Shown piece by piece: positions 1,811-51,054 of a stretch of 64,000 nt of DNA (position 1 is its first letter; every line of letters starts with the position of its first letter). The notes beneath the pieces are model-generated. The model had not been told where the DNA came from. It was given only the letters and a program-made list of their open reading frames with translations, and did no database searches. A program made the translations under genes and the position numbers. This DNA comes from an uncultured Bacilli bacterium (GTDB lineage Bacteria; Bacillota_I; Bacilli_A; RF39; UBA660), in the NCBI GenBank assembly GCA_947623935.1, contig CANQIE010000002.1, forward strand, positions 2,481 through 66,480, given 5' to 3'.

Positions 1811-2722
1811 TTATTTATGAGCTCTTGGATGACTCTTTAAATAAATGTCTTTTAAATGATCGGAAGTAATATGCGTATAAATCCCTGTGGTAGAAAGGCT
1901 TTCATGTCCTAAAAGTTGTTGTACGGACAAGAGATCACACCCTTCATTTAATAAGTGTGTTGCAAAACTATGTCTTAACATATGGGGACTAATCTTTTTT
2001 TGTAAAGCGGTCTTATCAATAATTTCATTGAGTGCTTTTTGAACACTTCGAACAGATAACTGTCCTCCATTTTGATTTAAAAATAAATAGGAAGAAGTCT
2101 TCCCTTTTAATAGAATAGGTCTTGCTTCTTTTAGATAACGATTTAATTTTATTTCGGCATTTTGATTGTAATAAGCAATGCGTTCTTTTTTTCCTTTTCC
2201 TAAAATTCGAATACGCCGATTCGAAAAATCAATGGTCTCTAGTTTAATGTCAACTAGTTCTGATACTCTTATTCCTGTGGCATAAAGCAGTTCAATTAGA
2301 AGCATAGAACGAATATCTTGAGGTCGTTCTCCCAAATCTACATTTAATAAATCTTCCACTTCATTATAGTAGAAAAACTTGGGTAATCTCGCTTCTTTCT
2401 TAGGCATTTTTAAAAGTGTAAAAACGTTTTTATCAAGTACATCTTCCATAATCAAATAATTATAAAAACTGCGCAAACTACTCAAATGTCTTGAAATACT
2501 GGTTGCTTTCATCTTTAATTTCTCACTCATGTAACGTTGGTATTCTCTTGCCTGTTCATAAGTTATTTTTTTGTAATTCAAACCATTTGACATTAGATAA
2601 ACTTCGTACTCTTCTAAATCTCGTTTATAATTATCGACGGTCTTACTGGAATAGGACCTTTGATACTCAAGGTACTCCAAATAGGGATCTAGTTCTATAA
2701 TTTTATTCTTATTATTTGACAT
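1811..2722 (-). CDS. Xer-family tyrosine recombinase (XerC/XerD-like)
   Basis: The C-terminus carries MLRHSFATHLLNEGCDLLSVQQLLGHESLSTTGIYTH (the R..H..R..Y catalytic region). The start was trimmed to the internal Met (MSNNKNK) that sits just after the upstream gene's stop. Confidence 0.8.
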   Translation of the reverse strand: MSNNKNKIIELDPYLEYLEYQRSYSSKTVDNYKRDLEEYEVYLMSNGLNYKKITYEQAREYQRYMSEKLKMKATSISRHLSSLRSFYNYLIMEDVLDKNVFTLLKMPKKEARLPKFFYYNEVEDLLNVDLGERPQDIRSMLLIELLYATGIRVSELVDIKLETIDFSNRRIRILGKGKKERIAYYNQNAEIKLNRYLKEARPILLKGKTSSYLFLNQNGGQLSVRSVQKALNEIIDKTALQKKISPHMLRHSFATHLLNEGCDLLSVQQLLGHESLSTTGIYTHITSDHLKDIYLKSHPRAHK

Positions 2723-3653
2723 GAGAATTACCTTCGGAAGGAACACTATTCATATTTAACTGTTCACTTCCATCATAATAATAAAAACCAGGTTCCACTT
2801 TAGGAACAGTCTTTTTCTTGGAGGTAGATTTACTTTCTTTAGAGGTAGACTCAGGATGGTCAAACGGATCTTTGATAAAATAAGGATCCCAATCTGGGTC
2901 ATCATAAAAAGTATCTTCTTCTATCTTTTTAGGAGCTGGAACAAATGGTTCAAACGTATAATCCGCACCATTTTCTCTTATTAAGTCATCTTGAATTTCA
3001 TTAAATGAAATCTGATGCATTGGGTAACGTTTGCTATAATCTTTATAGAAGAAGTAAATACCTCTAAATCGTTTATAATCGTCTTCTAAATATTGTACAA
3101 TTCTTTTTCCAAGACGGTCTTGTTCTTCTAAAATTTCTCTTTGTTCCGAATAACCTTCTGCAAAATTATAAAGAAAATCTTTTACTTTATTCCGTAAAAA
3201 AGAATCAATATAATTAGGACGCACATTTTCTTTTTGAATCGGATGCATTAATTCAGTCACAACACGACCATTGGCTTTTTTTAAATCATTAATAAAGGAA
3301 GATAAAAATTTTCTAGTATAAGGATCTTTTTTAGCAATCTCATTGGTTCCCTTTTGTAAGGCATGTGCTAAAAGATAATCTTCTTGATAGGCAACAGGAA
3401 TCGTTTTTGGATGAGGATTTCTGGAAGTCGGTTTGGTACTAATCGAGACTTCTCCCTTTCCTTCAGTAATTAAACCTAATTTTTTATACTTTTTTAATAA
3501 ATCCTCTTTATTATCGAACTGCATGGTAAAATGATCCCAATCTGCTAAATAAGCATTAGGACCTAATACATGATCATGTTCATCTAATAAAGGTAAAAGC
3601 GTTACATACTTCCCTTTCGTATAAACTAGACATTGTAATCCTTTCGCTGCCAT
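2712..3653 (-). CDS. hypothetical protein (about 313 aa)
   Basis: ORF with a good RBS (AGAAGGTGAAGAT-ATG) at the MAAKGL start. No family recognised. Confidence 0.45.
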   Translation of the reverse strand: MAAKGLQCLVYTKGKYVTLLPLLDEHDHVLGPNAYLADWDHFTMQFDNKEDLLKKYKKLGLITEGKGEVSISTKPTSRNPHPKTIPVAYQEDYLLAHALQKGTNEIAKKDPYTRKFLSSFINDLKKANGRVVTELMHPIQKENVRPNYIDSFLRNKVKDFLYNFAEGYSEQREILEEQDRLGKRIVQYLEDDYKRFRGIYFFYKDYSKRYPMHQISFNEIQDDLIRENGADYTFEPFVPAPKKIEEDTFYDDPDWDPYFIKDPFDHPESTSKESKSTSKKKTVPKVEPGFYYYDGSEQLNMNSVPSEGNSHVK

Positions 3654-3688
3654 ATCTTCACCTTCTCTTTTTATTATAATATAAATTA

Positions 3689-3715
3689 AAAAGTACATAC
3701 AAGAGATGTACTTTT
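3689..3715 (-). terminator. rho-independent terminator hairpin (AAAAGTACAT-N7-ATGTACTTTT), duplicated at 4728..4754
   Basis: A 10-bp perfect inverted repeat flanked by A and T runs lies immediately downstream of each paralog. Confidence 0.5.
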
Positions 3716-5169
3716 GTTTTAAATACAGTTTACACTTTTACTTTTTTATTTTTTGAAAACCAGGTCCTAATTCCTCTTCTACTTTGGATAGATGGTAAAG
3801 CATATGATCTATTATTTCTTCGTGTTCGGGATTTGCTTGTCTAAAAAGGCGTAACCGTTCTTGAATCAAAACCAGTCTTTTATCAGGAGTAAGGGTTGCT
3901 TCCTTTAATTTAGAAGAACGTATTTTTCTTTCTTTTTCTTTGTCGAAACCAAAAAGATGGAGTTCACTTTCCATAAAAAAATTAATATATCCCTTCACAA
4001 AAGAATCATCGTAACTATTAAGAACTTTTTTTGTACTTCCCATAGGAATACCAGATAACAAAGCTTTTTTAGCAATGAGAAGTCTATTTTTTTCATCTAC
4101 CATCCATTCTATAGGTTCCACCTTAAACCACTCTTCATTTGAAGAAATATCGAAATTATATAAATTTAAATATTCTTGTCCTTCAAACAAATAGGAATTT
4201 TTTCTTACATCAATTCCTGAATCGAATAACCAACTAATCCATCCGTCGTTGCTAGTATTAAACTCATAAAAACAATATCTTCCTTGTGCAAATAAATCTT
4301 TTTTATAATACGATAGAAGAGCACTTTCTTCAGGACTTACTAAAGTTTGAGGATAACGTCCTAAAAAGACAGTTTTCTTTCCTTTAGCTATTTCATCAAA
4401 TAGAGCATCTTTAAATTTTATCACAGGGCGAATACAGGGATAAAATTTATTGATTGGAACTTCTACAATTTGGGCCCTATTATCAATGGTTACCATTTTC
4501 TTTTTAAGGAATATAACTTGATCTGTCCAACAAGTAACAACATCCGAGATTAGTGGATGGCATCCAGTATAGAGTGCTAAATCAGAAGGAATCGTTTTTC
4601 TAATCTCTGGATCACTAAAAATAGATTCAGAATCATTAAGTAAACTACTAGGAATAACACTTATTTCAAAATCTTTTTCCATAGAACACCTCCTTTGTTA
4701 TAGGTCAAATTTTTCTCTATCAAATTAAAAAGTATATACAAGCAATGTACTTTTGTTTTAAATACAGTTTACACTTTTACTTTTTTATTTTTTGAAAACC
4801 AGGTCCTAATTCCTCTTCTACTTTGGATAGATGGTAAAGCATATGATCTATTATTTCTTCGTGTTCGGGATTTGCTTGTCTAAAAAGGCGTAACCGTTCT
4901 TGAATCAAAACCAGTCTTTTATCAGGAGTAAGGGTTGCTTCCTTTAATTTAGAAGAACGTATTTTTCTTTCTTTTTCTTTGTCGAAACCAAAAAGATGGA
5001 GTTCACTTTCCATAAAAAAATTAATATATCCCTTCACAAAAGAATCATCGTAACTATTAAGAACTTTTTTTGTACTTCCCATAGGAATACCAGATAACAA
5101 AGCTTTTTTAGCAATGAGAAGTCTATTTTTTTCATCTACCATCCATTCTATAGGTTCCACCTTAAACCA
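3707..5169. repeat. tandem direct duplication with a 1039-bp period; 3707..4130 is identical to 4746..5169
   Basis: Alignment of the two copies by eye: about 424 bp are 100% identical, covering the 3' half of both genes plus the downstream terminator. The 5' halves are clearly diverged. Confidence 0.8.
3738..4682 (-). CDS. hypothetical protein, member of a 7-copy paralog family in this window
   Basis: Shares KDFEISVIPSSLL and FKVEPIEWMVDEKNRLLIAKKALLSGIP with the 4777..5757 gene, and more distantly (LFVKVEPVLWWMDMEKERLISSKVLLGGI) with the five-gene array at 43834..48181. Confidence 0.55.
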   Translation of the reverse strand: MEKDFEISVIPSSLLNDSESIFSDPEIRKTIPSDLALYTGCHPLISDVVTCWTDQVIFLKKKMVTIDNRAQIVEVPINKFYPCIRPVIKFKDALFDEIAKGKKTVFLGRYPQTLVSPEESALLSYYKKDLFAQGRYCFYEFNTSNDGWISWLFDSGIDVRKNSYLFEGQEYLNLYNFDISSNEEWFKVEPIEWMVDEKNRLLIAKKALLSGIPMGSTKKVLNSYDDSFVKGYINFFMESELHLFGFDKEKERKIRSSKLKEATLTPDKRLVLIQERLRLFRQANPEHEEIIDHMLYHLSKVEEELGPGFQKIKK

Positions 5170-5757
5170 TCCTTCATTTGAAGACGTTTTAGAAGAAGAA
5201 TTTAGCATTTCTTTTGAAGGAAGATTTAAATTATCTAAATATAAATATTCTTGCCCTTCAAACAAATAGGAGCACTTATATACATCGATCCCTGGATCAA
5301 ATAGCCATTCCGTCCACCCGTTACTGTTAAAATAAAAAGCATAAAGGTCATAGGTTCCTTGTGCAAATAAATCTTTCTTATAATACGATAGAAGAACACT
5401 ATCTCTAGGACTTACTAAAGTTTGAGGATACTTCCCTAAAAATAGGTTTTTCTTGTCTTTTGCCAGTTGATCAAAAAGTGTATCCTTAAGTTTTATCACT
5501 GGACGAATACAGGGATAACGGGCATTAATCGGAATTTTTACAATTTGAGCTCTATTATCAATGGTTACCATTTTCTTTTTAGAAAAGGTAAATTGATCTG
5601 TCCAACAAGAAATTACACCGGTATTTAAAGGACGACATCCTACATATCGTGCTAAATCAGAAGGAATCGTTTTTCTAATCTCAAGATCACTAAAAATAGA
5701 TTCAGAATCCTTAAGTAGGCTTCCAGGAATAACACTGATTTCAAAATCTTTTGTCAT
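4777..5757 (-). CDS. hypothetical protein, tandem paralog of 3738..4682
   Basis: Start set at MTKDFEIS, which has an AAAGGAGGA RBS. The C-terminal roughly 130 aa are identical to the downstream paralog. Confidence 0.55.
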   Translation of the reverse strand: MTKDFEISVIPGSLLKDSESIFSDLEIRKTIPSDLARYVGCRPLNTGVISCWTDQFTFSKKKMVTIDNRAQIVKIPINARYPCIRPVIKLKDTLFDQLAKDKKNLFLGKYPQTLVSPRDSVLLSYYKKDLFAQGTYDLYAFYFNSNGWTEWLFDPGIDVYKCSYLFEGQEYLYLDNLNLPSKEMLNSSSKTSSNEGWFKVEPIEWMVDEKNRLLIAKKALLSGIPMGSTKKVLNSYDDSFVKGYINFFMESELHLFGFDKEKERKIRSSKLKEATLTPDKRLVLIQERLRLFRQANPEHEEIIDHMLYHLSKVEEELGPGFQKIKK

Positions 5758-10206: not shown

Positions 10207-11049
10207 TTAATCACTACCTTTTTCATTTAATAATTTAATTTTTTCTGCATTATTAAGTATATCTAATTGATATTTACATATATCACTTAATATTTCAAAT
10301 CTTTCTTCTTTTGATTTTCCTTCTTTAATTAACTCAGCATTATGTGATTCTAAATTAGATAAAACAGTTAATTCATTTATGGAAGCATAATCTCTTACAT
10401 TTGAATTTTTAGCTAACTCTGGATTTAATTCTCTCCATTTTTTAGCAGTGGTATGAAATAATATTACATTGAGAATATCTGCTTCTTCAGCATATTTTAA
10501 CCATTCTTTATTTTTATAAAAATCATTATCAGGTAAAATGTAATTTTTAATTGCATCTGTATGAATTAAATAATTATTCTTTGTAAGTATTCTTTTTACA
10601 TCCCATTCTCTATTTTGATTTTCTAGTTCTTTTAATCTTTCAAATTCTTTTATTAAATATAATTTAAATACAGGACTTATTGCAGATGCAAATTCAAAAG
10701 CAATATCTTTATGTGCATATGTTCCACCATATTTACCCATTTTAGAATATATTCCAATAGCATTTGTTCTTTCACACCACTCTGTAACACTAGGTGTAAA
10801 TGTCAATAAACCAACCTGTTTTCTAAAGTGTTCAGATTCGAACACTTTAAAATTAGGATTATAAATTTGTTCCCAAGTAGTTAAAAAATCTAATGTGCTT
10901 CTATTTCGCAACCAATTCCTTATAACATCTGCAGCTCTTGAATTACTACTTTTTGCTTTTGCTATATCTGAAATACAAATATAATCTTTTTCATTTATAT
11001 TGGTTACATTTATTCTGACATCTTGGACTTCTATTATTTTGTTAGACAT
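10207..11049 (-). CDS. KilA-N domain-containing protein
   Basis: ICISDIAKAKSS...VIRNWLRNRSTLDFLTTWEQIYNPNFKVFE resembles the KilA-N DNA-binding domain of phage Bro/KilA proteins. AT-rich. Confidence 0.5.
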   Translation of the reverse strand: MSNKIIEVQDVRINVTNINEKDYICISDIAKAKSSNSRAADVIRNWLRNRSTLDFLTTWEQIYNPNFKVFESEHFRKQVGLLTFTPSVTEWCERTNAIGIYSKMGKYGGTYAHKDIAFEFASAISPVFKLYLIKEFERLKELENQNREWDVKRILTKNNYLIHTDAIKNYILPDNDFYKNKEWLKYAEEADILNVILFHTTAKKWRELNPELAKNSNVRDYASINELTVLSNLESHNAELIKEGKSKEERFEILSDICKYQLDILNNAEKIKLLNEKGSD

Positions 11050-11116
11050 ATATTCACCTTCTTTTTCTTTATGGTTAATACTTATTTTTTGGAAACTTTA
11101 TAATTTAATTATATCA

Positions 11117-12337
11117 CTATTTATCAGATTTATATACTACTTTGACTCTATTTTTATCAAATATTTCTATTTGTTTTATATATTTATTTACCAAATTCTT
11201 ATTAAGTTTTTTATAATCCTTTTTATATTTATCATTAAAATCAACAAGTAACAATTTTTCTAAAATATCTTTCCTTATTGATTTTAAATTACAACCTATT
11301 TTACGATATGAAGATTTGCACCAATAATAATATATTCCTTTTGCTTTTCTTCTATAGAATTCGCTATGACATTCACCACATCTAATTTTAGTTATTAATA
11401 ATTCATTTTCCTCTTGTACTATATCAGAAAAGTTTAATATATTTTGAACTGTTTGAAATATTTCTTTATCAATTATTGGTTCATGATGGTTCTCGCATAT
11501 TTTCCATTCTTCTGGATTTGTTTTAATTACTTTTTTAAATTTTCTCATTGGTTTACGATTTTTACCTTGAATAAGTGTTCCTATATATGTTTCATTTTTT
11601 AATATTTCATTAATTATAGTATTGTTCCACTTTTTGGATTTAATTGTTTTATTGCTAGTTACTTTAGTTACCTCACTTTTGTACCTCGATGGAGTTAGTA
11701 TACCCTCCTTGTTTAGGATATCAGCTATTTCATTTTTACTTTTACATTCTAATGTCATATTAAAAATTCTTTTAATAATACTTGTAGCATAATCATCAAC
11801 AATAAACTTATGACAATCATTTGGATCTTTTAAGTAGCCGTAAGGAGCAGAAACGCCAATAAAGTCGCCTTTTTTCTGTTGAAGATGTTTAACTGCAGAG
11901 ACTTTTTCAGAAATATCAACTGCATAATGTTCATGTGTTAAATTTAGTAAGGCAAATTCTAAAGTATCTGTATAATTACTATCTTTAAGACTATCTAATT
12001 TATCATTAATAGAAATAAATCTAACACTATGTTTTGGAAATTCTTCACCCAAATATACTTTAACCCATCCAGTATCTCTTCCGAATCTAGACATATCTTT
12101 AACTATTACACAATTTATTTTTTTCTTCACTATATCAAAACATAATTTAACAAAAGCTGGTCTATCAAAATTAGTTCCAGTATAACCATTATCTACATAA
12201 TAATCTACTAACTCAAAATCACTATTATCTTTTATATAATCTTTAATTATGCTTTTTTGATTATCAATACTATCAGATTCATTATAACTATCATCTTTAG
12301 ATAGTCTTATATAAGCACCAACTTTATACTTTGACAT
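11117..12337 (-). CDS. large serine recombinase (resolvase/invertase-type catalytic domain, recombinase domain and zinc ribbon)
   Basis: The N-terminus carries YIRLSKDD...VIVKDMSRFGRD, the serine recombinase catalytic region. The C-terminus has CGECHSEFYRR...YYWCKS, a zinc ribbon. The start is at MSKYKVGAY, which has an RBS. Confidence 0.8.
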   Translation of the reverse strand: MSKYKVGAYIRLSKDDSYNESDSIDNQKSIIKDYIKDNSDFELVDYYVDNGYTGTNFDRPAFVKLCFDIVKKKINCVIVKDMSRFGRDTGWVKVYLGEEFPKHSVRFISINDKLDSLKDSNYTDTLEFALLNLTHEHYAVDISEKVSAVKHLQQKKGDFIGVSAPYGYLKDPNDCHKFIVDDYATSIIKRIFNMTLECKSKNEIADILNKEGILTPSRYKSEVTKVTSNKTIKSKKWNNTIINEILKNETYIGTLIQGKNRKPMRKFKKVIKTNPEEWKICENHHEPIIDKEIFQTVQNILNFSDIVQEENELLITKIRCGECHSEFYRRKAKGIYYYWCKSSYRKIGCNLKSIRKDILEKLLLVDFNDKYKKDYKKLNKNLVNKYIKQIEIFDKNRVKVVYKSDK

Positions 12338-12723
12338 AGTTATCACTTCTTTCATTATTATATCAAAAAAGTAGGATTTCTCCTACTTATAACACAAATC
12401 AATAAAACTTTTATTCTTTAACATTACATCCGTTAGCTTGTTCTACATATAATTGGAAAATTTGTTCAACTATTTTATCAAAATTATATTTTGAATCTTC
12501 ATTTTTATCATATTTTTTTACACAAAAAAACACACCTAAAAAGATGCGTAAATTAATTAAATTTTGTATAGTTTCACTGTCGTAATCAGTTGTCTAATTC
12601 CTAGTCAAAAAAGTAGTAATTTTTGCCATTTTTATCATTTTTTATCAATTTTTAGAGCTTTTTTAATAAAATCGTGTAAGATTTAATTTCCTGCAATTCC
12701 TTTATTTATAATGGTTTATAACG

Positions 12724-36575: not shown

Positions 36576-36589
36576 AAAAAAGTCCAAAG

Positions 36590-36730
36590 GGGCGATGTTA
36601 TCAACGATAAAACCTGCACCCATGTACAGGTGGGTGTCCATACGTCACCTTTAGGATCCCTAATCACAAGTGAAAAGGTCTTCAACACCGGTAACTGATC
36701 CGGACTCCCGTATCGTTATTTTAGTCGGTT
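36590..36730 (-). ncRNA. candidate structured RNA or riboswitch-like leader; class not identified
   Basis: A locally GC-rich 140-nt segment with long-range complementarity (AACGATA at 36603-36609 pairs with TATCGTT at 36711-36717) and internal hairpins (CACCCA...TGGGTG). It is followed by the terminator and then the pilin-like gene. Confidence 0.3.
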
Positions 36731-36869
36731 TTATATTGGATAACAAACGAATCCCTTTAGACAATATTATTATATCATATCTCTTTTAAAAAATACTACT
36801 ATTTCTTCACTTTCTTTTTAAGATTGAACAAAGATCTTTTTTATTCATACACTATAATAGGTGAAAAAT

Positions 36870-42606: not shown

Positions 42607-42797
42607 ATGTTCCTCCTAAAAAAATAAAAAGATCCTTACTTTTTTTGTAGAGACGAAATAACTTCCGCGGTTCCACTCTACTTATTCTATTAAGAATCTC
42701 TTTTTCTATATTGCTGATAGGTTTCCAAGCCCGTCATCGCATCAGTTACTAACATTTTATTATATTCTTTTGTTTTAGTCAAGCGAACAATTCCTTT
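42607..42797 (-). promoter_or_regulatory. T-box-like leader upstream of proS-glyQS
   Basis: On the minus strand, AGAGTGGAACCGCGG resembles the T-box core (GGGTGGNACCGCG). It is followed by a terminator-like stem and a T run (GTCTCTACAAAAAAAGTAAGGATCTTTTTATTTTTTT). Confidence 0.5.
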
Positions 42798-43781
42798 TTA
42801 TTTTAAGACTAAATGTTTTGCTTTCCATGTTTCAAACTCCACTCCTTCTTCTTCGGTTTCAATCTCCTCGTGATAATAATGCTTGGTAAACTCACCACAA
42901 GAACTGCCTACTTCCTTTCCAGGAGGGCTATAAGTTTTAATCCGTAAAGAAGGTATCTCTTTTTGAATCGAATAAACCCAAGATGTTTCGTTTTGGCTTC
43001 GTTCTAGTTCATGAATGGGATTAAAGCGAATGAATTTAATGGAAATCGGATATTGTTTTAATAAAGAAATCATAGCTTTCCGTTCCTCTTCTGTATCATT
43101 AACATTCGCAATTAAGGTGTAATGTATCTCCGTTGGATCTGTGGTTCTATGTAACCATTTATATTCACTTACTAAATCTGGCATTTGTTGAAAAGAAAAG
43201 CGATAGTCCATTAAAGACTTTAGAGCGTCTTCTACTGTTACTTTAGTACTGGGAATCAACTCTTTTCTTCTTTCATCAATTGGGGTATGAAGTGAAAAAT
43301 GTACCTTCAAAGGAATTCCTAATTTCAATACTAAATCATTTAACTTTTTCATGTTATCGTTTGGCATCATGGTTGAAATAGCATATCCTATATGACGATA
43401 ACCTAAGACTTCTTTTAAATAAGATTCTATCTTGTATACTTCTTCAATGAGTTCTAAATTTAAAAGCGGTTCTCCTACACCCATAAAAGAAATCAATAAA
43501 TTTTCTTTAGAGGTTCTTCTTTTTCCATCGATAGTTAATGTATCGATAAGACAAGGGATAAAATAATCTACCGTAATCGGTACCATCTCTTTATTTAGTC
43601 CTTTATTCGTCAAATGACACATTTTACATCCCAACGAACAAAAATGATGCGTAGGCACACAAACGACATCTTTATCTTCCTTATTAAATAATAAAGACAT
43701 TTCTATTATTTTTTTATCTTCTTCATAGACACTTTTTAAAGTACCATCATGAAAATCTTGAAATACACCTAATTTATGCAT
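42798..43781 (-). CDS. RlmN/Cfr-family radical SAM RNA methyltransferase lacking the N-terminal domain
   Basis: VCVPTHHFCSLGCKMC (a Cys plus CxxxCxxC), ISFMGVGEPLLN, VHFSLHTP, IRFNP and GSSCGEF all align with the RlmN motifs (LCVSSQVGCALECKFC / MGMGEPLLN / AISLHAP / IPWNP / AACGQL). The Cx3Cx2C sits at about residue 50 of this roughly 330-aa protein, much nearer the N-terminus than in E. coli RlmN. Confidence 0.7.
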   Translation of the reverse strand: MHKLGVFQDFHDGTLKSVYEEDKKIIEMSLLFNKEDKDVVCVPTHHFCSLGCKMCHLTNKGLNKEMVPITVDYFIPCLIDTLTIDGKRRTSKENLLISFMGVGEPLLNLELIEEVYKIESYLKEVLGYRHIGYAISTMMPNDNMKKLNDLVLKLGIPLKVHFSLHTPIDERRKELIPSTKVTVEDALKSLMDYRFSFQQMPDLVSEYKWLHRTTDPTEIHYTLIANVNDTEEERKAMISLLKQYPISIKFIRFNPIHELERSQNETSWVYSIQKEIPSLRIKTYSPPGKEVGSSCGEFTKHYYHEEIETEEEGVEFETWKAKHLVLK

Positions 43782-43833
43782 ATCTTTACTTCCCTTCTCC
43801 TTCATTATAGAAAGAATAAATCAAAAACTAAAA

Positions 43834-44727
43834 TTATTTTTTGGTGAGTCCTCTTTTTTGATATACAAATCTTTGCAAGGTAGGACTTGAATCAAATACT
43901 TCTGATTTAGAAGGTACCATGGAAGGCACTAATTCTTTTTTCATATAATTATTTAAATAATACTTCATAAAAGTGTTATAGAAATCATCATTGTAAGGAA
44001 TATTAAAGCGTTGAAACTGAATTCCTCCTAGTAAGGTTTCTGTTGCAAAAAGGGCTTTTTTCTCTTCATCTATCCACCATAAAACAGGTTCTACTTTTAC
44101 AAATAGCTTATCACCAAAACGACTTTCACATCCATTGGAAAGTACAATACTTCCATTTATTTCTAAATCAATATGATTATCGACATAGATATATTTTTGC
44201 CCCTTCTCAACATATTCTTTATATTCTTTTCCTTCAAAGGAAACATCTTCATTGCCATATTCTAGTCTTGTATTATCAAAGGTATACATTTTTCCAGTCG
44301 TAGGAAGTTCGTTAGAATCCAGTTTTTCTTTTAAAATAAATTGTTCGGAGTTCGAAGCTACTTTTTGAGGATACTCTAAAAAGGGAACTTGATATAAACC
44401 TGGTAGGATTTCAATTTTTTGATTTAAAAGAGATTCATAGAGATTGGAAGATGGAATTAAGAAAGGCCTTATGCCAGGATTTCTCATATAGCAAGCAACA
44501 TCAAACATTTTTCCTCTACTAAGAGCCCCCACGGAGTAATTATATAAAATTTCATAGCTATCAAAATCGTGCGCACTCGAGGTCCAAAAAGATCCTTTTT
44601 TATAAGCCCCTCTTAATAAAGCTAAATCAGTTACATGAGGAGTCTTTCCTTCGATTATAAAAAGTTTCTTAAAGAAAGATCGTTCACTATCCTCCTCTTT
44701 TATAAGCGTAAGTTCAAAATCGTCCAT
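43834..44727 (-). CDS. hypothetical protein, array paralog 5 of 5
   Basis: MDDFELTLIKEED...VTDLALLRG...FWTSS...LFVKVEPVLWWIDEEKK...LGGIQFQ. The start is 1 nt after the stop of the upstream paralog. Confidence 0.55.
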   Translation of the reverse strand: MDDFELTLIKEEDSERSFFKKLFIIEGKTPHVTDLALLRGAYKKGSFWTSSAHDFDSYEILYNYSVGALSRGKMFDVACYMRNPGIRPFLIPSSNLYESLLNQKIEILPGLYQVPFLEYPQKVASNSEQFILKEKLDSNELPTTGKMYTFDNTRLEYGNEDVSFEGKEYKEYVEKGQKYIYVDNHIDLEINGSIVLSNGCESRFGDKLFVKVEPVLWWIDEEKKALFATETLLGGIQFQRFNIPYNDDFYNTFMKYYLNNYMKKELVPSMVPSKSEVFDSSPTLQRFVYQKRGLTKK

Positions 44728-44728
44728 G

Positions 44729-45592
44729 TTATCTCTTCTTTCCATAGTTTTTATAAATTAGCCGCTTTAATGTCTCACTCGAATCAAAAACTTCGGATTT
44801 TTCCTTTATAACAGAAGGGATTAACTCTTTTTTCATATAGGTATCGAAATACTGTTTCATAAATGTATTATCAAAATCATCAAAATAAGGTTCATCATAT
44901 AATTGAAACTGAATGCCTCCTAAAAGCACTTTCGAAGAAATTAATCTTTCTTTTTTTAGATCCATCCACCATACGACTGGTTCTACTTTTACAAATAAAT
45001 TTTCACCTATGATCGTTTTGTGTCCATTAGAAAGATACGCGCTATTATAATAATGATTAGTATCTACATAAATATATTTTTGATTATTATAACTATATTC
45101 TTTATAAGCTTGTTCGCAAAAAGGAATATTAAGATTTTTAATTTCACTTGTAATTGCATCAAAGGTATAGACTTTACCGGTGGTAAAGAGTTTATTAGAG
45201 GCTAGTTTTTCTTTCAAGAGAACTTGTTCTTGCTCACCAACGACATCTTGAGGATACTCTAAAAAAGAAACCTGATAAAGACCTGATAAGATTTCTATTT
45301 TTTGCTTTAAAAGTTGATTCCATAAGGTGGAGGATGGAACTAAGACAGGAAGAATTCCAACATCCCTAACACTAGACCTTTCATGATCTTTTTCTGTATT
45401 CTTACCCAATATTCCAATTAAATCAGAAAATCCTAAAAAAGAGCTAGAGGTCCAAAAAGTACCTTTTTCATCTGCACCTCGTAAAAGAGCTAAATCGGTA
45501 ACGAAGGGATTTTTTTCTAGTTTTGAAATATATTTAAAAAGGGCTCTTTTCATCTCATTAAAAGTTAAAATCGTAAGTTCAAAGTCGTCCAT
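44729..45592 (-). CDS. hypothetical protein, array paralog 4 of 5
   Basis: Same family. Ends ...YKNYGKKR-stop, and those codons (GGAAAGAAGAGA) act as the RBS for the next gene. Confidence 0.55.
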   Translation of the reverse strand: MDDFELTILTFNEMKRALFKYISKLEKNPFVTDLALLRGADEKGTFWTSSSFLGFSDLIGILGKNTEKDHERSSVRDVGILPVLVPSSTLWNQLLKQKIEILSGLYQVSFLEYPQDVVGEQEQVLLKEKLASNKLFTTGKVYTFDAITSEIKNLNIPFCEQAYKEYSYNNQKYIYVDTNHYYNSAYLSNGHKTIIGENLFVKVEPVVWWMDLKKERLISSKVLLGGIQFQLYDEPYFDDFDNTFMKQYFDTYMKKELIPSVIKEKSEVFDSSETLKRLIYKNYGKKR

Positions 45593-45593
45593 G

Positions 45594-46454
45594 TTATCTC
45601 CTCTTTCCATAGTTTTTATAAATTAATCGCTTTAATGACTCACTCGAATCAAATATTTCTGATTTTTCCTTTATAACAGAAGGTCTCAAGTCTCTTTTCA
45701 TATAAGTGTCCAAATAATATTGTAGAAAAGTGCGTCGAAAGTTATGGTCATAAGCTTCTTCTCCACCTTGAAACTGAATACCTCCTAATAGAACTTTTGT
45801 TGAAATGAGGCGTTCTTTTTCCATATCCATCCACCATAAGACCGGTTCTACTTTAATAAATAGATTTTCACCCATGGTCGTTTCGTAGCCACTAGATAGA
45901 TATACACTATTATAACGGTTGGTATCAACATAAATGTATTTTTTATTTTTATAACTATATTCTGGATATTTTTTTCCTTGAAAAGAAACATATTCGCTTT
46001 CTGCTTCAAATGTTGCAGAATCAAACGTGTATACTTTACCGGTTGGAAGAAGTTCATTAGCATCTAGTTTTCCTTTTAAGAAAACTTGTTCTTGAATATT
46101 TGCAACATCTTGAGGATACTCTAAAAAAGAAACTTGATAAAGATGAGAGCCTATTTTTATTTTACTTTTTAAAAGTTGTTCCCATAAGGTTGAGGAAGAA
46201 ACAAGCACGGGAAGTATACCTATTCCTCTAGTACTAGACCTGTTAAAGTAACCCCCTCCTCCTTTAGTATTGGTAACGATAAAAAGAGTTGAGCCTAGAA
46301 AAGGACTAGAGGTCCAAAAAATACCATTTTCATTCGCATCTCGTAAAAGTGCTAAATCGGTAACGACATTAAGGTTTTCTAATTCTTTGAAATCTTTAAA
46401 AAAATCACTTTTGGTCTCTTGATAGGTTAAAATGGTAAGATCAAATTCATCCAT
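45594..46454 (-). CDS. hypothetical protein, array paralog 3 of 5
   Basis: Same family. MDEFDLTILTYQETK.... Confidence 0.55.
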   Translation of the reverse strand: MDEFDLTILTYQETKSDFFKDFKELENLNVVTDLALLRDANENGIFWTSSPFLGSTLFIVTNTKGGGGYFNRSSTRGIGILPVLVSSSTLWEQLLKSKIKIGSHLYQVSFLEYPQDVANIQEQVFLKGKLDANELLPTGKVYTFDSATFEAESEYVSFQGKKYPEYSYKNKKYIYVDTNRYNSVYLSSGYETTMGENLFIKVEPVLWWMDMEKERLISTKVLLGGIQFQGGEEAYDHNFRRTFLQYYLDTYMKRDLRPSVIKEKSEIFDSSESLKRLIYKNYGKRR

Positions 46455-46455
46455 G

Positions 46456-47331
46456 TTATCCCCTCTTTCCATATCTTTTATAAACTAATCGTTGTAATGT
46501 TTCACTAGAGTCAAACGTTTCTGATTTAGAAGGTACATTGAAAGGAATTAATTCTTTTTTCATATACGTATCCAAATATTTTTTTAAAAAAGCATCTGAA
46601 AAATTACCATGGTATTTCTTTTTACATTCTCGAAATGGAAGGCCTCCTAAAAGGACTTTAGATGAAATAAGGCGTTCTTTTTCCATATCCATCCACCATA
46701 GAACAGGCTCCACTTTCACAAATAATTTTTCATCAAAGTAACTTAGATTATGGGTTGATAGACGTATAGTATAATTTTGAAGTAGAGTATAATTTTGAAG
46801 TGCATCGACATAAATATATTTTTGATTTTGATAACTATATTCTGGATACGCTAGTCCTTTAAAAGGTATATATTCAAATCTTGGGTCAACCGTTACCGAA
46901 TCAAACGTATAAACTTTACCGGTCGGCAGTAGTTCATTAGAAGTTAACTTTTCTTTTAAAAGTGCTTGTTCTTGATCTTTTACTGCTTCTTGAGGATATT
47001 CTAAAAAAGAAACTTGATAACGATTAGAATCTATCTCTATTTTACTTTTTAAAAGTTGTTTCCACATAGTTAAGGATGGAACAAGAACGGGAAGGATTCC
47101 TACTGCTCGATCATTAGTACAATTAGAGGAACCTGTTCCTCCTTTATTATTCGTCTTAATAATATTATTAGAGAGACTAACACTCGAAGTCCAAAAAATG
47201 CCCTCGCTTGGTGCTCCCCTCATAAGAGCTAAATCGGTAACTTCATTATTTTCCTGCAGTTCTAGATAGGTTTTAAAATGATATTTTTTTGTTTCACGAT
47301 AAGTTAAAATTGTAAGTTCAAAGTCGTCCAT
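46456..47331 (-). CDS. hypothetical protein, array paralog 2 of 5
   Basis: Same family. The start is the MDDFELT Met preceded by AGAGAGGATAAC. Confidence 0.55.
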   Translation of the reverse strand: MDDFELTILTYRETKKYHFKTYLELQENNEVTDLALMRGAPSEGIFWTSSVSLSNNIIKTNNKGGTGSSNCTNDRAVGILPVLVPSLTMWKQLLKSKIEIDSNRYQVSFLEYPQEAVKDQEQALLKEKLTSNELLPTGKVYTFDSVTVDPRFEYIPFKGLAYPEYSYQNQKYIYVDALQNYTLLQNYTIRLSTHNLSYFDEKLFVKVEPVLWWMDMEKERLISSKVLLGGLPFRECKKKYHGNFSDAFLKKYLDTYMKKELIPFNVPSKSETFDSSETLQRLVYKRYGKRG

Positions 47332-47332
47332 G

Positions 47333-48181
47333 TTATCCTCTCTTTCCATATCTTTTATAAACAAGGCGTTGTAGATTTTCATTTGAATCAAAAACTTCCG
47401 ATTTAGAAGGCACATTGAAAGGAATTAATTCTTTTTTCATATATGTATCCAAATATTTTTTTAGAAAGGTATCTGAAAAATTACCATTGTATTTCTTTCC
47501 GCATTCTTGAAATGGAATGCCTCCTAAAAGTACTTTAGATGAAATAAGGCGTTCTTTTTCCATATCCATCCACCATAAAACAGGCTCCACTTTCACAAAT
47601 AAGTTTTCACCAAAATGGCTTACATTATTGGTTGATAGAAGTATAGTATAATTTTGAAATGTATTGACATAGATATATTTTTGATTTTCATAAATATATT
47701 CTTTATACGCTAGTCCTATAAAAGGAAGATGACGATTTTCCCAATGTACTGAATCAAAGGTATAGACTTTACCGGTCGGCAGTAATTTATTAGAAGTTAA
47801 CTTTTCTTTTAAGAACGCTTGTTCTTGTTCTTTTACCGCCTCTTGAGGATATTCTAAAAAAGAAACTTGATAACGATTAGAATCTATCTCTATTTTACTT
47901 TTTAAAAGTTGTTTCCACAAAGATAAGGATGGGACAAGAACAGGAAGAATTCCCATTTCTCGATCACTAGTCCAAGTAAAGGAACCTTCTCCTCCTTTAT
48001 TATTCGTCATAATATAATTAGTATGATTAATACTTGAAGTCCAAAAAACGCCTTCGCAATGCGCTGCTCTCATAAGGGCTAAATCGGTAACTTCATTATT
48101 TTCCTTTAATTCTTGAGGGGTTTTAAAATGATATTTTTTCGTATCTTCGAAAGTTAAAATCGTAAGTTCAAAGTCATCCAT
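47333..48181 (-). CDS. hypothetical protein, array paralog 1 of 5 (the promoter-proximal one)
   Basis: Same family. It is preceded by a 167-nt intergenic region and a terminator from the upstream yfhO-like gene. Confidence 0.55.
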   Translation of the reverse strand: MDDFELTILTFEDTKKYHFKTPQELKENNEVTDLALMRAAHCEGVFWTSSINHTNYIMTNNKGGEGSFTWTSDREMGILPVLVPSLSLWKQLLKSKIEIDSNRYQVSFLEYPQEAVKEQEQAFLKEKLTSNKLLPTGKVYTFDSVHWENRHLPFIGLAYKEYIYENQKYIYVNTFQNYTILLSTNNVSHFGENLFVKVEPVLWWMDMEKERLISSKVLLGGIPFQECGKKYNGNFSDTFLKKYLDTYMKKELIPFNVPSKSEVFDSNENLQRLVYKRYGKRG

Positions 48182-48312
48182 GAAGATTCCTCCTTTAAAA
48201 TGTTTTATAATAGAAAGTATTTAAAATTTCCACTTCATCGGTTGATAGTAAATATAAGCTTTCTTTAACCATGAAATCACTTTCTTTATATGGTTTCTTA
48301 TTATATATAAGA

Positions 48313-48340
48313 AAAAGAGATAAGTCAATTTATCTCTTTC
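48313..48340 (-). terminator. rho-independent terminator (AGAGATAA-gtcaat-TTATCTCT)
   Basis: 8-bp perfect stem with a T-rich tail on the minus strand, just after the stop of 48349..51054. Confidence 0.55.
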
Positions 48341-48348
48341 GTAAAAAA

Positions 48349-51054
48349 TTAAAATTTAAGGTAGAAAAAGAAGGAAATAAGAAAGCCTACTATAGGAAGT
48401 AAATAAACACCAATTAATAGCAGTAAATAAATACCAATATAAAGGTAATAAGCCATGTTTTGTAAAAACTTAATTGATAGTATTTTTTCATAAAGAGGAC
48501 TAAGTAGTAGCACTAGTGTAATCACTAAAGTAACAAGACTAATAATTCTTCCTGTTTTATAAGCTGGAGACGTATAAGTGAACGTAATTTCATTAGTGCC
48601 ACTGGTAACCTTTACTCCTAAGAAGTTATCAAATAAATCTACAACTTCGCCATTTTCACCATTAACTTCTACTTCATACCCTTCATTATAAGCAATCGGT
48701 AAGAATAAGATTTGATCTTTATCACTTAACAATTTTACTTTGATTTTGTTCTTTTCAAAAGAAAGGTTTAAGCCTACTTTTTCATTTTGAATAAAGTCTT
48801 CATATTTTTCAAGATCCAACATTCCTACTTCAACAACATCCAAATAGGTGGATTTATTGAATTCAATGCGAATCTTTACATCTTCATCTTCAAAGATACC
48901 TAAATCCAATAGGCCATTATCAATTTCTTCTGGATAATATCCTCTATAAAGTTTTCCATTTAGATAGATGTTCATACTCTCTAGAATTTCTTTGTTTTTG
49001 GAATTATCAATAGATAACAACAATTCTAAATAAAGGTTTTTTCTACCCTCAACGGAAACGATTTTCTCTAGATAAGCAATTCGCTCATCTTTTCGAATTT
49101 GATATCGGTAAAAAGTATCTTCCTCTTCTTCTCTATATTTAAGCAAATTCTTTCTTTGCCATAGACCTTCATCCACCGTAAAGATATCTTCTTCACTTCC
49201 GGTAATGGCTTTGTAGATTTTATTTTGGACTTCAAAGGCATTCGCTAAATCCATAATCTCTTCATCTTGTTTAACAAAGTAACCATATGGAATACTTTGG
49301 TTATGTTCGTATAACTGAATCGATCCAAACGTATCAACATAATGATAGTAAGGACTATTGTAATCGTCTTTACTGATAATGTATTGATTAGCAAGAAGAG
49401 CATCCGAGAAAAGACTTCCTCCAATCGAATAGGTTTTTACCCAATAGGAAGAATACCCTAATTTCTTTAAGGTCTCCATATTGCTCTTATCGGTAAGGGA
49501 TGTAAAATGATCTAAGGTATGGTATTTTGTCACCATCCCGTTATTCATGACTAATTTTGGATACAAATCTTTAACCCTTTTATAATCCCCTTCGGTATAG
49601 GAGTTTTCCATTAATTCCATATCTTCATAGACACTGGTTAAGGCATCTTGCTTGTAATCGATACCAAAATAGAGGAAAGAACAACAAACAATATTTACTA
49701 AAACCATGATCCAAATAAAGATAAAAGAGGTACCACTATAATTAAAGTGATTGAACCAAAGAATGACAAATACGCCTAAAGCAACGAGTGCCATCATGAT
49801 TAATAAAATCGTTGCAACAGAGGTATCTTTGCCAAGCGAGATACCAAATATTTTTTCTTGTAAATAGGAATAATTAAAGAACGTTAATAAAATATTGGCA
49901 AGTGAAATAAAGAATGTAATCAAACTTGACCAAAGGATTTTTTCTTTTGGAAAAGCTTCCCTCTTGGCTACTTTTGTGAAATAGTAAAGAGTTGCTAGCA
50001 TCATCAAGAACAACATGCAAAATTCAGTTCGTAAAGGGAAAAAGGCATAAGAACCTAAATGCCACATCTTATTGACGGGTTCTATAAAAATAGGAATTCC
50101 TAAAAGGATAAAAATAATACCAAAGAAGTGAAGCACTTTTTGATGTTCTTCTTTTCCTCTTGCCTTTACAAAAAGTAAAATAGTTCCTACTAAATAGAAG
50201 GAAGACGTCATGAAGAAACAAAGTTTATCGTTTAAAGGCCCAAATTTAGAATTTAATAACGTAGAAAGATTAAAACCCACTCTAGAAGAAACGGATAATT
50301 CTTTCATGGCTGGTAAGAAAATGAACGATGATAATAAAATGGAAAGAATCGTCGATAGACCAAGACTAAGAATCGCTTTCTTTCTCGTTTCTTTTTCTTT
50401 AAAACAGTATAAATAAATAAGCGAAGAGAAGAAAATGAAGAACAATAGAAGTCCTCCTAAATAAAAGGAGAAGATAAAACAAAGCGTTAAAATCACAATA
50501 TAAAGGGTTGGTTTTTCTAAGTTTAAAAGACGAATTAAGCTCATTAATAATAAAGGGAACAAATAGACAATATCGATCCAAGAAGTGATTTGATAAAGCA
50601 GTAATTGGTATCCGGAAAAAGCATATAAAATAGCAAGTAATACACTCAAATACGATGGTGCCCTCTTAAAATAAGTACGAATAAAATAAAGACTAGTCAA
50701 GCTCGACAATAACATTTTAACGGCAATTAAAATGGAAATGGCTAAGTAGATGTCACTTCGATCAAACAACAAAATAAGAAAACTTACAGGGCTCAGTAAA
50801 TAATAAGCAAAAATACCTAAAAAGTTAATTCCCCCACTCGTTGTAAAATCGATAAATAAGGAACTGTTTCCTCGAAAGGTATCATAGAAATGATAATAAA
50901 AGGCACATACTTGATCGTGCATATCGCCCCAAATAAGAGAATTGGTACCAAATGGATAAATCCCTTTTACTAAAAAGAGCACACTAAAAAGGAGTAAAAC
51001 AATTCCTCCTGTAATGACATAAGGCTTTATTTTAGACCACTTCATACACTTCAC
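48349..51054 (-). CDS. YfhO-family membrane glycosyltransferase (901 aa)
   Basis: GIYPFGTNSLIWGDMHDQVCAFYYHFYD...SLFIDFTTSGGINFLGIFAYYLLSP matches the YfhO N-terminal signature. Many TM helices plus a C-terminal domain. Confidence 0.75.
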   Translation of the reverse strand: MKCMKWSKIKPYVITGGIVLLLFSVLFLVKGIYPFGTNSLIWGDMHDQVCAFYYHFYDTFRGNSSLFIDFTTSGGINFLGIFAYYLLSPVSFLILLFDRSDIYLAISILIAVKMLLSSLTSLYFIRTYFKRAPSYLSVLLAILYAFSGYQLLLYQITSWIDIVYLFPLLLMSLIRLLNLEKPTLYIVILTLCFIFSFYLGGLLLFFIFFSSLIYLYCFKEKETRKKAILSLGLSTILSILLSSFIFLPAMKELSVSSRVGFNLSTLLNSKFGPLNDKLCFFMTSSFYLVGTILLFVKARGKEEHQKVLHFFGIIFILLGIPIFIEPVNKMWHLGSYAFFPLRTEFCMLFLMMLATLYYFTKVAKREAFPKEKILWSSLITFFISLANILLTFFNYSYLQEKIFGISLGKDTSVATILLIMMALVALGVFVILWFNHFNYSGTSFIFIWIMVLVNIVCCSFLYFGIDYKQDALTSVYEDMELMENSYTEGDYKRVKDLYPKLVMNNGMVTKYHTLDHFTSLTDKSNMETLKKLGYSSYWVKTYSIGGSLFSDALLANQYIISKDDYNSPYYHYVDTFGSIQLYEHNQSIPYGYFVKQDEEIMDLANAFEVQNKIYKAITGSEEDIFTVDEGLWQRKNLLKYREEEEDTFYRYQIRKDERIAYLEKIVSVEGRKNLYLELLLSIDNSKNKEILESMNIYLNGKLYRGYYPEEIDNGLLDLGIFEDEDVKIRIEFNKSTYLDVVEVGMLDLEKYEDFIQNEKVGLNLSFEKNKIKVKLLSDKDQILFLPIAYNEGYEVEVNGENGEVVDLFDNFLGVKVTSGTNEITFTYTSPAYKTGRIISLVTLVITLVLLLSPLYEKILSIKFLQNMAYYLYIGIYLLLLIGVYLLPIVGFLISFFFYLKF

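Follow-up and report, generated by a model that had tools for sequence, protein, structure and literature searches.

We report a tandem array of five paralogous genes, directly upstream of a gene for a radical S-adenosylmethionine (SAM) enzyme, in a 64,000-nucleotide (nt) stretch of DNA from an uncultured Bacilli bacterium, here called the window. On profile-level homology, the family encoded by the array is an undescribed relative of the lectin-like domains that diversity-generating retroelements (DGRs) target. The region studied spans positions 42798..48181, in which every gene lies on the minus strand, and the coordinates of all features are collected in Table 1. We interpret the array (g1 to g5), with moderate confidence, as a fixed repertoire of intracellular sensor subunits that would serve an ATPase/VWA-peptidase module encoded elsewhere, and the radical SAM gene as a separate neighbor.

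The sequence-only reading that drew attention to this region did not recognize the paralog family, and database searches give the same outcome: the seven window paralogs (the five of the array and two distant copies) have no match in Pfam, NCBIfam, PADLOC or PHROGs, a tblastn search with them against 50,697 phage records returned nothing, and a sequence-profile search of the PDB with the family yielded chance-level matches only. Just 10 relatives were returned by a word-indexed search, and an exhaustive profile search collected 1,947 cluster representatives at E<=1e-3 (483 at <=1e-30), among them numerous forms of ~600-650 amino acids (aa) and proteins in which the unit occurs two or three times. 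We annotated 35 loci from species-representative genomes for the family. The window paralogs are cytoplasmic, without signal peptide, and share the fixed core motifs TDLA, FWTSS, GI[LR]P, EYPQ and KVEPxxW. The AlphaFold2 model of g4, a confident one (predicted local distance difference test, pLDDT, 91.7), begins with an alpha/beta module (~residues 1-87), which is followed by a beta-rich middle and, at the C-terminus, by helices; for the fold of the whole protein, neither the PDB nor BFVD offers a neighbor.

The sole recurrent Pfam family among the relatives is DUF6273 (PF19789), with sub-threshold matches in 5 of 95. Homology of the family to proteins matching DUF6273 was found at the profile level through protein P0289, which the family profile detects at E 2.7e-18 in a database of 5.8 billion sequences and with an hhalign probability of 99.2%; P0289 carries LRR_5 repeats, and its own DUF6273 match lies below the cutoff (17.2 vs 23.5 bits). 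One member of a short-form array (locus L029) does pass the Pfam cut-off (27.8 > 23.5 bits), its residues 24-86 matching positions 103-170 of the 172 in the profile. In the literature DUF6273 is a C-type-lectin-like domain targeted by DGRs, and its variable region occupies the C-terminal end (PMC10743442; bioRxiv 10.1101/2024.10.15.618418). The domain occurs in DGR variable proteins, in the phage receptor-binding tentaclins and as the N-terminal domain of the Thomasclavelia ramosa IgA protease. The likeness is between the N-terminal ~90 residues of our family and the C-terminal part of DUF6273, and the DGR variable region of family relatives falls in the same W...RPA segment. From this homology we infer that the first ~90 residues of the paralogs are probably a ligand-binding module of the DUF6273, C-type-lectin-like type. 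The resemblance is partial, since the window paralogs reach no Pfam threshold, the module covers only part of DUF6273 and continues into a family-specific beta-rich domain followed by helices, and the window proteins are intracellular, unlike the phage tail and surface proteins that carry DUF6273. Neither DUF6273 nor the DGR-target link, which are not visible without tools, figured in the sequence-only reading.

The architecture of the relatives places this module in a larger system. Long forms of ~640 aa carry a divergent AAA+ ATPase with Walker A HGxSxxGKS and Walker B FFDE, matching phrog_1297 ('ATPase'); its class is uncertain, with AAA_5 sub-threshold and Sigma54_activat at 23 bits, and comparison of this C-terminal ATPase with the PDB and NCBIfam gave no informative match. 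The short form corresponds to the N-terminal ~290 aa of these fusions. Downstream of the long forms lie a gene for a ~130-aa protein and then one for a protein that combines DUF2201_N, an HExxH metallopeptidase, with the VWA-like DUF2201, and the ATPase, 130-aa and DUF2201 genes adjoin or are fused to family members in ~20 related loci. Split versions occur as well, in which three tandem short forms (L029) or one (L035) immediately precede genes for a stand-alone ATPase, the small protein and the peptidase-VWA protein; L029 and an 8-copy 'orphan' array (L032) belong to the same genome assembly. Tandem arrays of the family comprise 8 copies in L032, 7 in L024, at least 7 in a sister genome of the window (L011) and 3 in L029. 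Other architectures place two or three units in one protein (P0131, P0132), in some cases on either side of the ATPase (P0132), or fuse the family to ankyrin repeats (P0138) or to BspA-type LRR_5 repeats (P0289).

Six related loci (L049, L018, L021, L033, L014 and L027) carry a reverse transcriptase (RT) gene of ~345-360 aa immediately upstream of the long form. Five of these RTs are intact, of RVT_1 type, with LGNQ[ST]SQ and YMDD motifs, and that of L027 is split in two fragments. The RT is preceded by an accessory protein whose bAvd-like match (21.8 bits) lies under the cutoff of 40, and upstream of the RT stands a template repeat that has a matching stretch in the family member, within codons 47-113, from about W-W-S-x-S through R-P-A. 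Mismatches between template and variable copies fall at template adenines in 11/13, 8/8, 11/18, 11/12, 16/17 and 14/17 cases (binomial P 5e-3 to 3e-8). These six loci are bona fide DGRs that rewrite the N-terminal loop of the family, bounded by the W-[WT]-S-x-S motif on one side and R-P-A/V on the other. A 5' position of the variable region in a DGR target has been described as rare. The full cassette, found in gut Bacilli and Clostridia (L049:5847-11910; ~7600-13700 in L014, L018, L021, L027 and L033), reads bAvd-like gene, template repeat, RT, sensor::AAA+ fusion, ~130-aa protein and DUF2201_N+DUF2201 protein, and we found no open-access paper that links DGRs with DUF2201. In two of the cassettes an open reading frame (ORF) is interrupted, the target gene by a stop codon inside the variable region (L018:9818-11755) and the RT gene by division into two ORFs (L027:8527-9686), which may be a sign of DGR decay or a side effect.

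The loop that DGRs rewrite in the long forms maps onto the segment between FWTSS and GILPV in the window paralogs, and here the array copies differ most from one another. The overall identity of ~0.5-0.6 drops in this segment to 0.26 for the window array, 0.10 for the sister array and 0.15 for the L032 array, which is unrelated, and the segment holds the only 15-codon stretch with a ratio of nonsynonymous to synonymous proportions of differences (pN/pS) clearly above 1 at ordinary pS (1.33). Other variable segments of the family lie at profile columns 11-30, 161-170 and 191-210. Over their whole length the array copies show a ratio of nonsynonymous to synonymous substitution rates (dN/dS) of ~0.3 at dS 0.3-1.5, and the five paralogs are old tandem duplicates under purifying selection overall. 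Copy number and order differ between the window array and that of the sister genome, and one-to-one orthology is only partial. A DGR locus is marked by an RT with the [ILV]GxxxSQ motif and by a template/variable repeat pair that differs at template adenines, a MoxR-vWA system by a MoxR-like AAA+ ATPase and a vWA-domain protein at one locus. The window itself contains no RT homolog, no repeats besides the array period, and no homolog of the ATPase, the 130-aa protein or DUF2201.

According to the interpretation we favor, the five cytoplasmic short forms would be made together, through coupled translation from one promoter, as a germline, hard-wired repertoire of intracellular binding (sensor) subunits with differing specificities. 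These subunits would correspond to the heads that DGRs diversify in the long forms and would serve an ATPase, small-protein and peptidase-VWA module encoded outside the window, plausibly to recognize invading (phage) molecules. Homology and the divergence pattern point to a ligand-binding role, with specificities that would differ because the paralogs diverge most in the loop that DGRs rewrite in relatives. Partnership with an AAA+ ATPase is suggested by fusion and operon evidence, because short forms are fused to the ATPase or lie directly upstream of it in relatives. By analogy with known conflict systems, the array may also have a role in defense.

Several observations weigh against this interpretation. 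None of the seven window proteins matches DUF6273, even at E<=1. Neither the 64-kb window nor the contigs of the sister genome contain an ATPase, a VWA protein, a bAvd-like protein or an RT, and many short forms elsewhere are singletons without conserved neighbors. The excess of pN/pS over 1 is limited to one 15-codon stretch and does not amount to a formal test. The components of the long-form system, the generic RT excepted, have no PADLOC match, and the array and the radical SAM gene are probably co-transcribed, given the gap of 52 nt and the lack of a terminator between them, so that a functional tie is conceivable.

Some of these points would fit paralogs that act as stand-alone binders with no need of an ATPase, resembling immunity proteins or antitoxins, or serving as decoys that neutralize a range of toxins or phage proteins. 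In Firmicutes, immunity genes are found in tandem arrays, and the window copies are likewise cytoplasmic, tandem and diversifying, with number and order varying between sister genomes; many short forms have no ATPase nearby, and the window offers no partner gene. No toxin or secretion-system gene adjoins any array examined, however, and the identity of the short form with the N-terminal 290 aa of the ATPase fusions, together with its position directly upstream of the ATPase in L029 and L035 (Rosetta-stone and operon evidence), argues for a partner, which leads us to consider independent binders unlikely. That the array is a functionless remnant, in decay, of what was once a long-form or DGR system would agree with the lack of RT, template repeat and ATPase in the window and with the decayed DGR cassettes of relatives (split RT in L027, stop inside the variable region in L018); yet all five ORFs are intact, dN/dS stays at ~0.3 at dS up to 1.5, the core motifs are invariant, and both sister genomes keep the junctions that bear Shine-Dalgarno (SD) sequences and the rare AAG codons, and we accord this explanation the least credence of all. 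Scarcely more probable is that paralogs and radical SAM enzyme constitute one module, as the sequence-only reading had implied, with the enzyme modifying, for instance, the paralogs or a shared RNA or nucleotide substrate and the array supplying stoichiometric partners. The two share a strand, the short gap between them carries neither promoter-like nor terminator-like site, and the sister genome keeps the adjacency. Against a joint module, the radical SAM family is much more broadly distributed and better conserved than this paralog branch and its other contexts have no family member nearby, none of the 33 other family loci has a radical SAM gene within the retrieved flanks (up to 10 kb), and the adjacency occurs in two closely related genomes, whose radical SAM proteins are 88% identical. 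Because each occurs elsewhere without the other, we treat array and radical SAM gene as neighbors.

The closest known counterparts of the sensor interpretation are found in MoxR-vWA (VMAP ternary) and STAND conflict systems, whose C-type-lectin sensors are diversified by DGRs (Kaur et al. 2020, PMC7159879; Dore et al. 2024, PMC10907252). Our relatives resemble these systems in that they combine a hypermutated lectin-like module, an AAA+ ATPase, a peptidase-VWA protein and a DGR in one operon. Unlike in MoxR-vWA systems, the variable module of the relatives sits at the N-terminus of the ATPase itself rather than at the C-terminus of the vWA protein, DUF2201_N/DUF2201 serves as VWA partner, the lectin-like domain is of a different type, no VMAP protein was identified, and the hosts are small-genome gut Bacilli and Clostridia instead of multicellular cyanobacteria or actinobacteria. 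The window departs further: it has no DGR, and of the system only the sensor-like halves are there, repeated as an array.

If the sensor interpretation is true, the array would be the fixed-repertoire counterpart of retroelement hypermutation within a single protein family, and would offer a natural experiment on recognition diversity, with many hard-wired copies on one side and one rewritable copy on the other. The locus also draws attention to an unnamed family of ~1,900 clusters and to a conserved operon (sensor, AAA+ ATPase, 130-aa protein, metallopeptidase-VWA protein, often a DGR). The operon is absent from current catalogues of defense systems and is found in abundant uncultured gut Bacilli, outside the multicellular bacteria in which DGR-diversified conflict systems were described. 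A more speculative extension, which we advance tentatively and regard as doubtful, would have one family of gut Bacilli and Clostridia diversify its loop in two ways, by a DGR on sensor::AAA+ fusions in some genomes and by a germline array plugging into a shared machine in others such as this one, the two together constituting an uncatalogued surveillance against phages or mobile elements in gut bacteria with small genomes; as a separate matter, the RlmN-like neighbor may methylate free nucleotides instead of RNA. It is this contrast between array and DGR that makes the locus interesting, the SD sequence in the tail codons being ordinary and the truncated RlmN an apparently unrelated neighbor.

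Table 1 Positions of the features discussed, in coordinates of the 64,000-nt window
Feature	Position	Strand	Description
Paralog g1	47333..48181	-	282 aa; short-form family member; hidden Markov model (HMM) E 5e-84
Paralog g2	46456..47331	-	291 aa; start 1 nt past g1 stop; SD within g1 codons 47336..47347
Paralog g3	45594..46454	-	286 aa; SD within g2 codons 46459..46470
Paralog g4	44729..45592	-	287 aa; SD within g3 codons 45597..45608; AlphaFold2 model, pLDDT 91.7
Paralog g5	43834..44727	-	297 aa; most divergent copy; weak SD within g4 codons 44732..44743
Variable-region-equivalent loop, g1	47951..48031	-	
Variable-region-equivalent loop, g2	47098..47181	-	
Variable-region-equivalent loop, g3	46218..46304	-	
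Variable-region-equivalent loop, g4	45356..45442	-	Between FWTSS and GILPV; most divergent paralog segment
Variable-region-equivalent loop, g5	44473..44574	-	
Radical SAM gene, RlmN/Cfr type without N-terminal domain	42798..43781	-	327 aa; ORF reaches 43805
Promoter-like site TTGACT-17-TATAAT	48300..48328	-	11/12 consensus matches; ~120 nt upstream of g1, just after yfhO-like gene
T-box-like leader of proS	42646..42799	-	40.3 bits, under Rfam gathering score of 93; E 1.2e-7 (401-nt search)
Distant family member	4777..5757	-	326 aa; between topA and xerC-like gene
Distant family member	3738..4682	-	314 aa; 3' part 99% nucleotide-identical to 3' part of its neighbor

The head-to-tail arrangement of the five paralogs with gaps of a single nucleotide, which the sequence-only reading had emphasized, was confirmed at all four junctions (TAA-c-ATG), each of the form ...TAT GGA AAG AxR xGA TAA c ATG GAY GA... 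An in-frame ATG lies 18 nt upstream of the MDDFEL starts of g2-g5 (MER[GE]DN-MDDFEL), and gene callers are inconsistent in using it. At these upstream ATGs the duplex with the anti-SD sequence has energies of 0.3 to -1.7 kcal/mol, that is, there is no SD, and they were ruled out as true starts; the MDDFEL starts of g2, g3 and g4 stand behind GGAAAGAGAGGA-type tracts (-8.1, -8.1 and -9.0 kcal/mol), that of g5 behind a weak one (-3.3). The first gene, g1, with no paralog upstream, starts at MDDFEL with a canonical AAAGGAGG placed 7 nt before the ATG (-11.7). Because an SD precedes the MDDFEL starts and none is found at the upstream ATGs, the model with 1-nt gaps is best. Of the lengths given earlier, 282-303 aa, the lower limit holds, but the upper one becomes 297 with SD-backed starts, 303 stemming from an upstream ATG.

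The last codons of each upstream gene do carry the SD of the next, as had been noticed, and their choice of AAG, GGA and AGA or AGG fits selection. The tail Lys codon is AAG at 4/4 junctions despite AAA making up 87% of Lys codons in the array genes, which therefore supports nucleotide-level selection for the SD; the junction Gly codon is always GGA, and the junction Arg codon always AGA or AGG. The further claim that this signal locks the C-terminus of the protein does not survive, given that amino-acid identity of the C-terminal block among the five paralogs is 0.71 vs up to 0.89 in other blocks, with a normal pS of 0.53. Unusual tail conservation owing to the SD was thus ruled out at the amino-acid level and at the window-wide synonymous level, and selection for the SD is supported only by the codons used at the last four positions. 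The YGK(K/R)(R/G) tail ascribed to all five proteins is present at the g1-g4 junctions and missing from g5, which ends in QKRGLTKK.

Close stop and start codons together with an SD inside the upstream coding sequence are found at all 4 junctions, so coupling is predicted from sequence. The array resembles translationally coupled operons in that a single nucleotide separates stop from start, the last four codons contain the SD and codon choice leans to G-containing purine codons, and nothing essential sets it apart from them; the junction was copied by tandem duplication and is hence seen four times. An SD within the 3' end of the upstream gene is an ordinary outcome of tight operon packing, so that coupling, presented earlier as unusual, is normal, and other arrays of the family use different tight junctions. 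The four-fold repeated junction reflects duplication of a gene in tandem along with its ribosome-binding site in a compact genome. The sister genome keeps the GGAAAGARRRGA-stop-N-start junction with variation in stop (TAA/TAG), spacer base and start (ATG/GTG), the L032 and L029 arrays are joined by AAAGTGAGG-TAG-ttat-ATG, and those of L013 and L015 by overlapping TAATG junctions. The array probably has one promoter and is predicted to be translationally coupled. The promoter-like site upstream of g1 is no more than a match to the consensus, sites of this kind occurring in the region in the number that shuffling predicts, and no promoter-like or terminator-like site was found between g5 and the radical SAM gene. 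The array region is 100% identical to a contig of ENA sample ERZ27249187, and among species representatives the nearest is a metagenome-assembled 'uncultured Bacilli' genome from rabbit gut. The G+C content of the window is 32%, and its genetic code is the standard one; an alternative code, considered on the lack of TGA stops among 20 genes, was ruled out, as TGA ends 5/53 long ORFs.

The radical SAM gene most likely starts at 43781, behind the SD AAGGAG, which gives a length that fits its homologs and the distance of 52 nt past the g5 stop reported earlier. Profile comparison and structure-sequence alignment bear out an RlmN/Cfr-type core with both mechanistic cysteines and no N-terminal domain. 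The protein scores 91.1 bits against TIGR00048 (RlmN cut-off 290), 61.2 against CfrAB and 53.6 against TIGR04432 (Cfr cut-offs 530-550), and so falls short of assignment as any of these equivalogs. Its match begins at position 73 of the 355 in the RlmN profile and, in Escherichia coli RlmN, extends from chain residue 88 of PDB 3rf9 (404-residue chain) to the C-terminal CGQ motif; because the alignment begins at residue 88, the N-terminal part of RlmN has no counterpart here. Residues C41, C48/C52/C55 (CX3CX2C) and C295 align to RlmN residues (mechanistic: E. coli C118 and C355) and are invariant in 25 homologs. The enzyme resembles RlmN and Cfr in its CX3CX2C motif, both mechanistic cysteines, MGxGEPLLN and SLHxP motifs and an alignable catalytic core, and is unlike them in lacking the N-terminal domain, in scoring far under the equivalog cut-offs and in its nucleotide-metabolism contexts.

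These contexts characterize a clade of at least 658 matches, mostly of ~329 aa with 60-70% identity. One recurrent arrangement reads LysR, radical SAM, small ORF and PRA-PH/MazG-like pyrophosphatase gene, sometimes in mobile-element regions; elsewhere the enzyme is fused to a deaminase, or follows NUDIX and RsuA-like pseudouridine synthase genes (recurrent contexts at L005:8001-9823, L044:6001-7399, L046:6001-7512 and L047:2940-6079). Some copies lie among Mob_Pre and resolvase genes. The fused deaminase is not TadA, which would have made the radical SAM enzyme a modifier of the tRNA anticodon loop, since it scores 86-90 bits as ComEB/dCMP deaminase vs 22-24 as TadA, and a phage origin of the radical SAM gene was rejected on finding just 3 weak viral loci, although phrog_27142 matches at E 5e-18. 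As the enzyme adjoins the array only in this genome and its sister, and has no family member beside it in other contexts, it belongs to a separate, widely distributed clade placed beside the array in this lineage only, and is probably not a partner of the array.

A possible alternative, tentative at best, is that this gene is the working RlmN of its lineage, a housekeeping m2A methyltransferase for 23S rRNA A2503 and/or tRNA A37 that has lost the N-terminal domain. All RlmN/Cfr catalytic motifs are kept and invariant across the clade, one context puts the gene 4 nt after that of the RsuA-like rRNA pseudouridine synthase, and the window has no second rlmN-like gene. The scores far under the RlmN and Cfr cut-offs and the absent N-terminal domain, hypothesized to aid binding of the RNA substrate (Kaminska et al., PMC2836569), speak against it, as do recurrent partners from nucleotide metabolism (the ComEB/dCMP-deaminase-like fusion, PRA-PH/MazG-like and NUDIX proteins) and copies in mobile-element regions. 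Contexts and fusions hint at a nucleotide, not rRNA, as the substrate of the clade. The enzyme may correspond, as a candidate only, to the additional small RlmN/Cfr-related subfamily of unknown function noted in PMC2836569. The clade is uncharacterized, and its nucleotide-metabolism partners merit a separate look.

The two further family members that the sequence-only reading had placed at 3738..5757 belong to the family by HMM (E 1e-53 and 1e-56, ~24% identity). Their 300-nt 3' segments (3683-3982 vs 4722-5021) are 99% identical, ~55 nt beyond the stop included, and their 5' parts 78%, which suggests recent gene conversion or partial re-duplication between the two copies. A different assembly of the same sample (L051) has each of the two genes broken in two (248+80 and 236+80 aa) and differs from the window by 10 indels. 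Between them and the xerC-like gene lies a minus-strand ORF of 328 aa (2712-3698) that shares 35 nt with the start of the recombinase ORF; it has no Pfam, NCBIfam or PHROGs match, and a PADLOC match to PbeC is at chance level (E 0.015). Judged by the Bacillus subtilis gene order, topA-[two paralogs and orphan]-xerC-like looks like a conserved housekeeping block with an insertion (2712-5757) where trmFO would be expected.

By the same comparison, ybeY-dgkA-cdd-era-recO-[yfhO, array, radical SAM, proS]-glyQS looks like a second such block with an insertion (42798-51054). The T-box-like leader begins at the stop codon of the radical SAM gene and marks the 3' limit of the array/radical SAM transcription unit, and a promoter-like site lies inside it (42782..42754). 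ARAGORN detected no tRNA genes in the 64 kb, and the only Rfam family at threshold in the window is a 6S (SsrS) RNA gene (36577-36766, minus strand; 52 bits, above the gathering score). A segment at 10207-12355 (minus strand) encodes a large serine recombinase (412 aa) and a KilA-N protein (280 aa) between genes for a ribosome-biogenesis GTPase and a uracil-DNA glycosylase (annotation from L051), and is probably a mobile-element remnant.

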